A stretch of 37,752 bases of DNA from Escherichia phage T7. The DNA lies in sequence record MZ375255.1. One strand, given 5' to 3'. Of this stretch, positions 1 through 37,752 are shown piece by piece; positions within the stretch are counted from its first letter, which is position 1, and each line of letters opens with the position of its first letter. The translations under genes and the position numbers were made by a program. The notes under the pieces are model-generated. The model did not search any database. It saw nothing but the letters and a program-made list of their open reading frames with translations, and was not told the origin of the DNA.

Positions 1-140
1 TCTCACAGTGTACGGACCTAAAGTTCCCCATAGGGGTACCTAAAGCCCAGCCAATCACCTAAAGTCAACCTTCGGTTGACCTTGAGGGTTCCCTAAGGGT
101 TTGTCTTTGGGTGTTACCTTGAGTGTCTCTCTGTGTCCCT
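1..140 (+). repeat. Left direct terminal repeat (TR), 140 bp, identical to 37613..37752
   Basis: Exact 140-nt identity between window start and end; begins TCTCACAGTGTACGG as in T7 TR. Confidence 0.95.
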
Positions 141-9117: not shown

Positions 9118-9537
9118 GTGGAACTGCGGGAGAAAATCCTTGAGCGAATCAAGGTGACTTCCTCTGGGTGTTGGGAGTGGCAGGGCGCTACGAACAATAA
9201 AGGGTACGGGCAGGTGTGGTGCAGCAATACCGGAAAGGTTGTCTACTGTCATCGCGTAATGTCTAATGCTCCGAAAGGTTCTACCGTCCTGCACTCCTGT
9301 GATAATCCATTATGTTGTAACCCTGAACACCGTTCCATAGGAACTCCAAAAGAGAACTCCACTGACATGGTAAATAAGGGTCGCTCACACAAGGGGTATA
9401 AACTTTCAGACGAAGACGTAATGGCAATCATGGAGTCCAGCGAGTCCAATGTATCCTTAGCTCGCACCTATGGTGTCTCCCAACAGACTATTTGTGATAT
9501 ACGCAAAGGGAGGCGACATGGCAGGTTACGGCGCTAA
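9118..9537 (+). CDS. 2.8: Gp2.8, HNH-motif protein, paralog of gp7.7 (139 aa, GTG start)
   Basis: GTG start directly after 2.5 stop; HSCDNPLCCNPEH motif; clear similarity to 17872..18264. Confidence 0.8.
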   Translation: MELREKILERIKVTSSGCWEWQGATNNKGYGQVWCSNTGKVVYCHRVMSNAPKGSTVLHSCDNPLCCNPEHRSIGTPKENSTDMVNKGRSHKGYKLSDEDVMAIMESSESNVSLARTYGVSQQTICDIRKGRRHGRLRR

Positions 9538-9985
9538 AGGAATCCGAAAGGTTGGAGCGTTTCGCTCTGGCCTAGAGGACAAGGTTTCAAAGCAGTTGGA
9601 ATCAAAAGGTATTAAATTCGAGTATGAAGAGTGGAAAGTGCCTTATGTAATTCCGGCGAGCAATCACACTTACACTCCAGACTTCTTACTTCCAAACGGT
9701 ATATTCGTTGAGACAAAGGGTCTGTGGGAAAGCGATGATAGAAAGAAGCACTTATTAATTAGGGAGCAGCACCCCGAGCTAGACATCCGTATTGTCTTCT
9801 CAAGCTCACGTACTAAGTTATACAAAGGTTCTCCAACGTCTTATGGAGAGTTCTGCGAAAAGCATGGTATTAAGTTCGCTGATAAACTGATACCTGCTGA
9901 GTGGATAAAGGAACCCAAGAAGGAGGTCCCCTTTGATAGATTAAAAGGAAAGGAGGAAAGAAATAATGGCTCGTGTACAGTTTAA
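9518..9985 (+). CDS. 3: Endonuclease I (Holliday junction resolvase), C-terminus altered by 1-nt frameshift (155 aa vs 149 aa native)
   Basis: MAGYGAKGIRKV...; ends ...DRLKGKEERNNGSCTV instead of ...DRLKRKGGKK; A4 run at 9943-9946. Confidence 0.85.
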   Translation: MAGYGAKGIRKVGAFRSGLEDKVSKQLESKGIKFEYEEWKVPYVIPASNHTYTPDFLLPNGIFVETKGLWESDDRKKHLLIREQHPELDIRIVFSSSRTKLYKGSPTSYGEFCEKHGIKFADKLIPAEWIKEPKKEVPFDRLKGKEERNNGSCTV

Positions 9986-10421
9986 ACAACGTGAATCTAC
10001 TGACGCAATCTTTGTTCACTGCTCGGCTACCAAGCCAAGTCAGAATGTTGGTGTCCGTGAGATTCGCCAGTGGCACAAAGAGCAGGGTTGGCTCGATGTG
10101 GGATACCACTTTATCATCAAGCGAGACGGTACTGTGGAGGCAGGACGAGATGAGATGGCTGTAGGCTCTCACGCTAAGGGTTACAACCACAACTCTATCG
10201 GCGTCTGCCTTGTTGGTGGTATCGACGATAAAGGTAAGTTCGACGCTAACTTTACGCCAGCCCAAATGCAATCCCTTCGCTCACTGCTTGTCACACTGCT
10301 GGCTAAGTACGAAGGCGCTGTGCTTCGCGCCCATCATGAGGTGGCGCCGAAGGCTTGCCCTTCGTTCGACCTTAAGCGTTGGTGGGAGAAGAACGAACTG
10401 GTCACTTCTGACCGTGGATAA
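9966..10421 (+). CDS. 3.5: T7 lysozyme (N-acetylmuramoyl-L-alanine amidase; T7 RNAP inhibitor), 151 aa
   Basis: MARVQFKQRESTDAIFVHCSATKPS...; 151 aa. Confidence 0.97.
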   Translation: MARVQFKQRESTDAIFVHCSATKPSQNVGVREIRQWHKEQGWLDVGYHFIIKRDGTVEAGRDEMAVGSHAKGYNHNSIGVCLVGGIDDKGKFDANFTPAQMQSLRSLLVTLLAKYEGAVLRAHHEVAPKACPSFDLKRWWEKNELVTSDRG

Positions 10422-12291
<1,870 letters not shown>

Positions 12292-12353: not shown

Positions 12354-12623
12354 ATGTCTAACGTAGCTGAAACTATCCGTCTATCCGATACAGCTGACCA
12401 GTGGAACCGTCGAGTCCACATCAACGTTCGCAACGGTAAGGCGACTATGGTTTACCGCTGGAAGGACTCTAAGTCCTCTAAGAATCACACTCAGCGTATG
12501 ACGTTGACAGATGAGCAAGCACTGCGTCTGGTCAATGCGCTTACCAAAGCTGCCGTGACAGCAATTCATGAAGCTGGTCGCGTCAATGAAGCTATGGCTA
12601 TCCTCGACAAGATTGATAACTAA
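12354..12623 (+). CDS. 4.5: Gp4.5 (89 aa)
   Basis: MSNVAETIRLSDTADQWNRRVHINV...; RBS caggagaaacc. Confidence 0.85.
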   Translation: MSNVAETIRLSDTADQWNRRVHINVRNGKATMVYRWKDSKSSKNHTQRMTLTDEQALRLVNALTKAAVTAIHEAGRVNEAMAILDKIDN

Positions 12624-12667
12624 GAGTGGTATCCTCAAGGTCGCCAAAGTGGTGGCCTTCATGAATA
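12624..12667 (+). promoter_or_regulatory. RNase III site R4.7
   Basis: gagtggtatcctcaaggtcgccaaagtggtggccttcatga hairpin. Confidence 0.55.
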
Positions 12668-12690
12668 CTATTCGACTCACTATAGGAGAT
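12668..12690 (+). promoter_or_regulatory. T7 promoter phi4.7 (now directly upstream of gene 5)
   Basis: CTATTCGACTCACTATAGGAGAT. Confidence 0.8.
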
Positions 12691-12714
12691 ATTACCTCAA
12701 TAGGAGAAATCAAT

Positions 12715-14829
12715 ATGATCGTTTCTGACATCGAAGCTAACGCCCTCTTAGAGAGCGTCACTAAGTTCCACTGCGGGGTTATCTACGACTACTCCACCGC
12801 TGAGTACGTAAGCTACCGTCCGAGTGACTTCGGTGCGTATCTGGATGCGCTGGAAGCCGAGGTTGCACGAGGCGGTCTTATTGTGTTCCACAACGGTCAC
12901 AAGTATGACGTTCCTGCATTGACCAAACTGGCAAAGTTGCAATTGAACCGAGAGTTCCACCTTCCTCGTGAGAACTGTATTGACACCCTTGTGTTGTCAC
13001 GTTTGATTCATTCCAACCTCAAGGACACCGATATGGGTCTTCTGCGTTCCGGCAAGTTGCCCGGAAAACGCTTTGGGTCTCACGCTTTGGAGGCGTGGGG
13101 TTATCGCTTAGGCGAGATGAAGGGTGAATACAAAGACGACTTTAAGCGTATGCTTGAAGAGCAGGGTGAAGAATACGTTGACGGAATGGAGTGGTGGAAC
13201 TTCAACGAAGAGATGATGGACTATAACGTTCAGGACGTTGTGGTAACTAAAGCTCTCCTTGAGAAGCTACTCTCTGACAAACATTACTTCCCTCCTGAGA
13301 TTGACTTTACGGACGTAGGATACACTACGTTCTGGTCAGAATCCCTTGAGGCCGTTGACATTGAACATCGTGCTGCATGGCTGCTCGCTAAACAAGAGCG
13401 CAACGGGTTCCCGTTTGACACAAAAGCAATCGAAGAGTTGTACGTAGAGTTAGCTGCTCGCCGCTCTGAGTTGCTCCGTAAATTGACCGAAACGTTCGGC
13501 TCGTGGTATCAGCCTAAAGGTGGCACTGAGATGTTCTGCCATCCGCGAACAGGTAAGCCACTACCTAAATACCCTCGCATTAAGACACCTAAAGTTGGTG
13601 GTATCTTTAAGAAGCCTAAGAACAAGGCACAGCGAGAAGGCCGTGAGCCTTGCGAACTTGATACCCGCGAGTACGTTGCTGGTGCTCCTTACACCCCAGT
13701 TGAACATGTTGTGTTTAACCCTTCGTCTCGTGACCACATTCAGAAGAAACTCCAAGAGGCTGGGTGGGTCCCGACCAAGTACACCGATAAGGGTGCTCCT
13801 GTGGTGGACGATGAGGTACTCGAAGGAGTACGTGTAGATGACCCTGAGAAGCAAGCCGCTATCGACCTCATTAAAGAGTACTTGATGATTCAGAAGCGAA
13901 TCGGACAGTCTGCTGAGGGAGACACAGCATGGCTTCGTTATGTTGCTGAGGATGGTAAGATTCATGGTTCTGTTAACCCTAATGGAGCAGTTACGGGTCG
14001 TGCGACCCATGCGTTCCCAAACCTTGCGCAAATTCCGGGTGTACGTTCTCCTTATGGAGAGCAGTGTCGCGCTGCTTTTGGCGCTGAGCACCATTTGGAT
14101 GGGATAACTGGTAAGCCTTGGGTTCAGGCTGGCATCGACGCATCCGGTCTTGAGCTACGCTGCTTGGCTCACTTCATGGCTCGCTTTGATAACGGCGAGT
14201 ACGCTCACGAGATTCTTAACGGCGACATCCACACTAAGAACCAGATAGCTGCTGAACTACCTACCCGAGATAACGCTAAGACGTTCATCTATGGGTTCCT
14301 CTATGGTGCTGGTGATGAGAAGATTGGACAGATTGTTGGTGCTGGTAAAGAGCGCGGTAAGGAACTCAAGAAGAAATTCCTTGAGAACACCCCCGCGATT
14401 GCAGCACTCCGCGAGTCTATCCAACAGACACTTGTCGAGTCCTCTCAATGGGTAGCTGGTGAGCAACAAGTCAAGTGGAAACGCCGCTGGATTAAAGGTC
14501 TGGATGGTCGTAAGGTACACGTTCGTAGTCCTCACGCTGCCTTGAATACCCTACTGCAATCTGCTGGTGCTCTCATCTGCAAACTGTGGATTATCAAGAC
14601 CGAAGAGATGCTCGTAGAGAAAGGCTTGAAGCATGGCTGGGATGGGGACTTTGCGTACATGGCATGGGTACATGATGAAATCCAAGTAGGCTGCCGTACC
14701 GAAGAGATTGCTCAGGTGGTCATTGAGACCGCACAAGAAGCGATGCGCTGGGTTGGAGACCACTGGAACTTCCGGTGTCTTCTGGATACCGAAGGTAAGA
14801 TGGGTCCTAATTGGGCGATTTGCCACTGA
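12715..14829 (+). CDS. 5: DNA polymerase gp5 (704 aa)
   Basis: [12 protein letters not shown] (exo motif DxE), family A polymerase motifs; RBS aggagaaatcaat. Confidence 0.98.
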
Positions 14830-37612: not shown

Positions 37613-37752
37613 TCTCACAGTGTACGGACCTAAAGTTCCCCATAGGGGTACCTAAAGCCCAGCCAATCACCTAAAGTCAACCTTCGGTTGACCTTGAGGG
37701 TTCCCTAAGGGTTTGTCTTTGGGTGTTACCTTGAGTGTCTCTCTGTGTCCCT
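37613..37752 (+). repeat. Right direct terminal repeat (TR), 140 bp, identical to 1..140
   Basis: Exact identity with window positions 1..140. Confidence 0.95.

Follow-up and report, generated by a model that had tools for sequence, protein, structure and literature searches.

A probable minority allele of T7 gene 3 in which a one-base deletion recodes the endonuclease I tail

Gene 3 of the phage T7 clone analysed here lacks a single A in its last homopolymer, and the endonuclease I that it encodes ends in a tail different from that of the reference protein. The same shortened run occurs in four of 60 clones from one serial-passage experiment. Our comparisons suggest a genuine −1 deletion, which probably arose by slippage during that passage and was carried along as a tolerated minority allele. 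The variant is a laboratory allele of a very well-characterised junction-resolving enzyme, already present in three public records, and represents no new gene, family or mechanism.

The window, by which we mean the whole 37,752-bp stretch that was analysed (MZ375255), is a clone from the published CRISPR/Cas9 genome-reduction experiment on T7 (CiPGr; Yuan et al., NAR 2022, PMC9825161). In CiPGr, T7 went through 300 transfers on E. coli MG1655 cells equipped with SpCas9 and a cassette library (spacer plus homology arms); L clones, which are the large-plaque, best-killing ones, and S (small-plaque) clones were sampled every 10 transfers, and 60 clones were sequenced on an Illumina HiSeq instrument (PMC9825161). 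Metagenomes of the populations were sequenced as well, at transfers 20–50 and every 50–100 transfers thereafter. Accession numbers of the clones run in sequence from MZ375233 (10L) to MZ375292 (300S), which by numbering makes MZ375255 clone T7_120L. Alignment with the reference and with sibling clones shows that the window carries engineered deletions together with an early-to-middle set of substitutions, a SNP profile that fits this stage, and on both counts the window is most likely T7_120L.

The end of gene 3 and the protein it encodes

Positions 9935–9985 of the window read GATAGATTAAAAGGAAAGGAGGAAAGAAATAATGGCTCGTGTACAGTTTAA and include a run of four A residues (A4), where reference T7 (V01146) has one A more (A5). 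An earlier note, made from the letters of the window, had claimed that a one-base loss in this run recodes the C-terminus of endonuclease I, and both translation and comparison with V01146 bear this out. The features concerned are as follows.

9518..9985, + strand: variant allele of gene 3 (endonuclease I), with 155 codons and TAA; assigned by translation, PF05367 and identity to PDB 2PFJ/1M0D through residue 143
9943..9946, + strand: A4 homopolymer in which the single base was lost; reference T7 has A5 here (10682–10686)
9947..9982, + strand: codons 144–155 in the shifted frame, G K E E R N N G S C T V in place of R K G G K K in the wild type
9950..9956, + strand: AAGGAGG, the unaltered Shine-Dalgarno sequence for gene 3.5, 9 nt before its ATG; gene 3 now reads it as K145-E146-E147
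9964..9968, + strand: TAATG, the wild-type overlap of gene 3 stop and gene 3.5 start; its TAA (9964–9966) is now out of the gene 3 frame
9966..10421, + strand: gene 3.5 (T7 lysozyme/amidase, PF01510), intact, with 20 nt at its 5′ end now shared with the gene 3 reading frame
9983..9985, + strand: new TAA stop of gene 3, ending 20 nt into gene 3.5

Translated from the ATG at 9518 to the TAA at 9983–9985, variant gene 3 yields 155 amino acids ending in ...DRLKGKEERNNGSCTV (also given as ...EVPFDRLKGKEERNNGSCTV), with the tail codons D140 R141 L142 K143 G144 K145 E146 E147 R148 N149 N150 G151 S152 C153 T154 V155 followed by TAA. The reference gene (V01146, 10257..10706) encodes 149 amino acids with the C-terminus ...DRLKRKGGKK. 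Here the earlier note was right in detail: it had given the length of the variant, the length and ending of the T7 protein together with the five A residues that this ending needs, a 20-nt overlap with gene 3.5, and a gene 3.5 ribosome-binding site (RBS) and start left intact downstream of the indel. Indeed, the overlap spans 9966–9985, and both AAGGAGG at 9950–9956 and the ATG at 9966 are unchanged. V01146 is annotated with the last base of gene 3 and the first of gene 3.5 both at 10706, the one base shared within TAATG. The note had also named a four-A run in reference T7 as a finding that would speak against a deletion; the reference run has five.

GenBank records of sibling clones start endonuclease I at an upstream ATG inside gene 2.8, which gives a protein of 171 aa (166 aa in A5 clones). 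This reading frame corresponds to window 9470–9985 (9459–9974 in a sibling record) and is also picked by mechanical ORF callers. The T7 reference start of gene 3 corresponds to window 9518, and the ATG at 9470 is not the T7 gene 3 start. Gene 2.8 is left out entirely in the sibling annotations. Several GenBank records are thereby flagged as carrying a frameshifted, mis-started 'endonuclease I' annotation.

Up to the deletion, the protein is that of T7. Residues 1–143 are identical to the wild-type chains in PDB 2PFJ and 1M0D, and Pfam family PF05367 matches residues 1–148 with 282.1 bits against a cut-off of 29.1. All of E20, D55, E65 and K67, which we take to be the catalytic residues of T7 endonuclease I, are present in the variant, as is K145, regenerated by chance in the new frame. 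Together with K40 and K103, which the variant also shares with T7 endonuclease I (PF05367; PDB 1FZR, 1M0D, 2PFJ), K145 forms a basic patch at one end of the DNA channel (Kaczmarczyk et al., Nat Commun 2022, PMC9547003). The gene likewise keeps its place between genes 2.8 and 3.5. What differs from the T7 enzyme is R144G, the replacement of GGKK by EERNNGSCTV, the length (155 vs 149 aa) and the position of the stop inside gene 3.5. Two Glu residues now adjoin K145, six residues are added, and the net charge after L142 falls from +5 in the wild type to +1.

The tail important for junction binding and sliding is the N-terminal one, of 16 residues (PMC9547003). The searchable literature covers these 16 residues, and we found in it no study of residues 146–149 or of the C-terminal tail; the PhageMaP preprint contains nothing on T7 gene 3. 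The sequence of PDB 3CAE ends at K145, so that a chain listed without residues 146–149 (GGKK) has been crystallised.

Among the 120 nearest homologues, endonuclease I is 146–152 aa long, and its tail is always short and Lys-rich (4–7 K/R), otherwise varying freely; Gly at the position of R144 is common and occurs naturally in several of them. At 155 aa and a tail charge of +1, the variant falls outside this family trait. Judged from these sequences, the composition of the variant tail is outside natural variation, but the change is confined to a terminal segment that varies freely among homologues. The endonucleases I of the T7-like phages PGX1, Berlin, BA14 and MmP1 belong to the same fold family, and their tails are likewise built from K/R/G/E codons in a purine-rich region before the next gene. 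Unlike the variant tail, these natural tails end before the start of the next gene, at it, or within 4 nt of it.

Gene 3 is a classical essential gene. It lies outside the set of genes that could be removed in the CiPGr experiment (PMC9825161), and all four A4 carriers were picked as large-plaque clones. Since the core is intact, the gene is essential and not removable, and its carriers make large plaques, we infer that the variant enzyme is active and would still resolve four-way junctions as a dimer, perhaps with slightly weaker electrostatic contact to DNA. Neither the nuclease core nor the catalytic residues nor the domain-swapped dimer region is touched by the change, which would leave the enzyme functional, and any loss of electrostatic DNA contact would be at most modest and confined to one end of the binding channel. 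A phage can thus have the final four to six residues of endonuclease I exchanged, most of the basic C-terminal tail among them, and still form large plaques. It is mildly informative that most of this tail is dispensable for plaque formation; otherwise the finding, an ordinary and tolerated mutation, matters little beyond housekeeping.

Occurrence and origin of the deletion

The A4 allele is carried by clones 120L (the window), 180L, 230L and 260L. It was present by about transfer 120 and lasted to at least transfer 260, that is, for at least 140 transfers, and accounts for about 10% of late clones; it is absent from the eight clones of transfers 270–300. The carriers are L clones without exception; counted from transfer 120, they make up 4 of 19 L clones against 0 of 19 S clones (two-sided Fisher p = 0.105), an asymmetry that is suggestive only. 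An alignment of 11 genomes contains no marker private to the four A4 clones, there being no substitution exclusive to them.

Replication slippage in the A5 run during serial passage would be the simplest origin of such an allele. The deletion moves the last codons of gene 3 into the +1 frame, turning R144 into G, regenerating K145 and converting GGKK into EERNNGSCTV. Ribosomes translating gene 3 would now cross the RBS and start codon of gene 3.5 and terminate 17 nt further on. Its location at the extreme end of the gene, with six codons to go, would make the frameshift tolerable, and the allele may be near-neutral. Some observations sit less easily with slippage followed by near-neutral persistence. 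The source paper describes small deletions in T4 populations only, which fits awkwardly with a T7 allele at about 10% of late clones (PMC9825161). The Lys-rich tail in all 120 nearest homologues suggests that its basic character is under some constraint, so the variant may not be fully neutral, and the allele is missing from transfers 270–300. We nevertheless consider a tolerated slippage allele probable. A programmed +1 frameshift at A_AAA_AGG in the wild type, which would yield the same tail, was also considered and set aside as unsupported.

Given the conditions of passage, slippage might have supplied an allele that was then enriched because gene 3 thereby lost a Cas9 target at its 3′ end. 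The phage grew on cells with SpCas9 and a spacer library, spacer or PAM regions account, according to the authors, for ~23% of the point mutations in T7, gp2.5 (usually deemed essential) and gp3.5 are among the genes reported as deleted or disrupted and were evidently targeted, and Figure 6 of the paper includes a class 'essential genes with spacer target' (PMC9825161). A frameshift indel in an essential gene can survive only at such a 3′ end. Six NGG protospacers of wild-type T7 overlap the A-run wholly or in part, and in one, TCCCCTTTGATAGATTAAAA|AGG, the run falls within PAM and seed; nearby, a double substitution in gene 2.8 lies 6–7 nt from an AGG PAM. However, about three protospacers are expected by chance over any 5-nt stretch, and six are therefore not discriminating. 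Gene 3 is, moreover, among the classical essential genes. According to the paper, previously reported essential genes were not targeted (PMC9825161). A4 resembles the escape mutations of Cas9-challenged phages in being a small indel at a site that NGG protospacers cover and in coming from passage on Cas9 cells; unlike them, it did not sweep, remaining at about 10% and disappearing after transfer 260, although an escape allele would be expected to rise. On balance, escape from Cas9 is possible but unlikely.

The allele might also have been favoured for its own effects, either through altered translation of gene 3.5, which encodes the lysozyme and RNA-polymerase inhibitor, once the TAATG overlap was lost, or through weaker DNA binding by endonuclease I. 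That all four carriers are L clones and none S, and that the allele lasted at least 140 transfers, would agree with this, but the L/S split is not significant (p = 0.105) and the allele was never fixed. In the variant, the gene 3 stop and the gene 3.5 start no longer overlap tightly or abut, the new stop lying 17 nt beyond the ATG, against overlaps of 1–4 nt in T7, Berlin, BA14 and PGX1; in the latter three phages, endonuclease I shares a 4-nt ATGA overlap with the next gene. Termination-reinitiation predicts weaker coupling in such an arrangement, and some occlusion of the start site. Yet the junction of endonuclease I with the next gene is not strictly conserved, an MmP1-like phage having a 20-nt gap at this point, and gene 3.5 keeps its own strong Shine-Dalgarno sequence, which is unchanged, as is its ATG. 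Local RNA structure near the gene 3.5 RBS is weak, non-significant and alike in both alleles (z-scores 0.3 and 1.1), and an Rfam scan of 9300–10600 gave no match at E ≤ 1 to a known RNA element such as a frameshift signal. We regard an adaptive role of either kind as decidedly unlikely. There is likewise only a slight chance that the shifted stop changes the amount of T7 lysozyme, the inhibitor of T7 RNA polymerase, and contributes to the large-plaque, fast-killing phenotype of the four carriers. If selection did favour the allele, through lysozyme dosage or escape from Cas9, this would give a small but neat example of a frameshift in an essential gene that survives owing to its place at the extreme 3′ end.

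Authenticity of the allele and the cassette alternative

The earlier note had left open whether the frameshift is real or a homopolymer error. The evidence favours the former, through recurrence, mixed haplotypes, the lack of any other one-base indel and the use of Illumina sequencing. A 501-bp query around the site retrieves 107 T7-type records at ≥99% identity, of which only MZ375267 (T7_180L), MZ375277 (T7_230L) and MZ375283 (T7_260L), each described as 'Mutant Escherichia phage T7 clone', are identical to the window. A 61-bp query centred on the run retrieves 113 records: three, all CiPGr siblings, have A4; 109 differ at ~1 of 61 positions, the difference being an extra A (A5) in every record inspected; and one is more distant.

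The three siblings come from the same evolving population as the window and share with it the A4 allele and the identical surrounding 501 bp, but differ in SNPs and deletion haplotypes elsewhere, for instance in the gene 4.2–4.7 region and at position 11811. In the 11-genome alignment, A4 is found with both alleles at 11811 and with both gene 4.2–4.7 deletion haplotypes, as expected for a true allele segregating and recombining in a mixed T7 population; the contemporaneous clones 120S, 130L, 180S, 190L and 230S have A5. Whole-genome alignment with the reference shows that the loss of this A is the only 1-nt indel in the unique sequence of the window, the other changes being larger deletions or substitutions. 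T7 has only 15 homopolymers of at least 5 bases, and 10 of these remain in the window, alongside 167 runs of at least 4 bases, without any other change in length. One-base indels are therefore neither scattered across homopolymers nor confined to one record.

Because it is shared by three sibling clones on different haplotypes and is the sole 1-nt indel in unique sequence, A4 is most likely a genuine minority allele and not a homopolymer error, as read from assembled sequences alone. A sequencing or assembly error in a phage that truly has A5 would agree with the position of the change in a homopolymer and with the outcome of a search of independent Logan/ENA assemblies, in which the 155-aa form was not found; the 171-aa form occurs only in the three GenBank sibling records. 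The source paper, too, reports 1–2-base deletions in population reads of T4 only, with no small deletions in T7 populations and no mention of a frameshift (PMC9825161). An error of this kind would, however, have to strike three more clone assemblies, of other time points, in exactly the same way and leave 56 sibling clones at A5, spare every other run in the window, and arise in Illumina HiSeq data. Consensus errors from A5 to A4 are rare on Illumina. We therefore judge an artefact very unlikely.

Import of a synthesis error from the chip-synthesised left arm of a gene 3.5 deletion cassette, copied in by recombination, is scarcely credible: gp3.5 was a target, the arms were 50 bp long and only 42% of cloned cassettes matched their design (PMC9825161), and a 50-bp left arm should span the A-run, which lies ~20 nt upstream of the gene 3.5 ATG, given that deletion junctions in the window show arms abutting ORFs (gene 1.4, for example, is removed exactly), but gene 3.5 is intact in all four carriers, so the arm error would need to have been transferred without the deletion, by exchanges inside ~25 bp. 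A genuine slippage allele remains the reading that we prefer.

Other changes in the window and sibling clones

Gene 3.8 has lost 292 bp in frame, and its first codons are joined to gene 4A (window 10485–12233). The resulting fusion ORF of 582 aa consists of the primase/helicase with a 16-residue N-terminal extension, and sibling records annotate the entire fusion as DNA primase/helicase. Similarly, the deletion of gene 4.7 leaves an ORF in frame from upstream sequence into gene 5 (window 12568–14829), mechanically of 753 aa; in 180L and 190L an ORF of 738 aa is annotated as DNA polymerase. Gene 5 keeps its RBS and ATG (12716), and the phi4.7 promoter is also still in place, so the N-terminal extension of gene 5 is probably an annotation artefact.

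Both terminal repeats of the window (1–140 and 37613–37752) lack 18 bp (reference 99–116), as they do in 180L, 230L and 260L. Both also contain a small rearranged stretch near 29–34 that is unique to the window when compared with these three clones, and that could be either a real variant or an assembly-end effect.

At window 20928 (reference 22904), the +1 base of the phi10 promoter, which serves the major capsid gene, is changed from TAATACGACTCACTATAGGGAGA to ...TATATGGAGA. The window has this change, as have all eight later clones examined (120S to 260L), but 110L lacks it. It has the look of a fixed, probably adaptive mutation that weakens the strongest promoter of T7.

In the HNH-like gene 2.8, TA is replaced by GT at window 9332–9333 (reference 10071–10072), converting CTA to CGT and Leu to Arg, 6–7 nt upstream of an AGG PAM. 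This dinucleotide substitution, which looks like a Cas9-escape change, is found in the window and in 7 of 9 sibling clones compared (not in 110L or 130L); clone 180S has an additional +G frameshift in the same gene. Gene 2.5 (essential ssDNA-binding protein, reference 9158–9856) carries many different substitutions in different sibling clones, at reference 9161, 9215, 9307/9311/9312, 9394, 9606 and 9741, a pattern in keeping with a succession of escapes from spacers directed against an essential gene.
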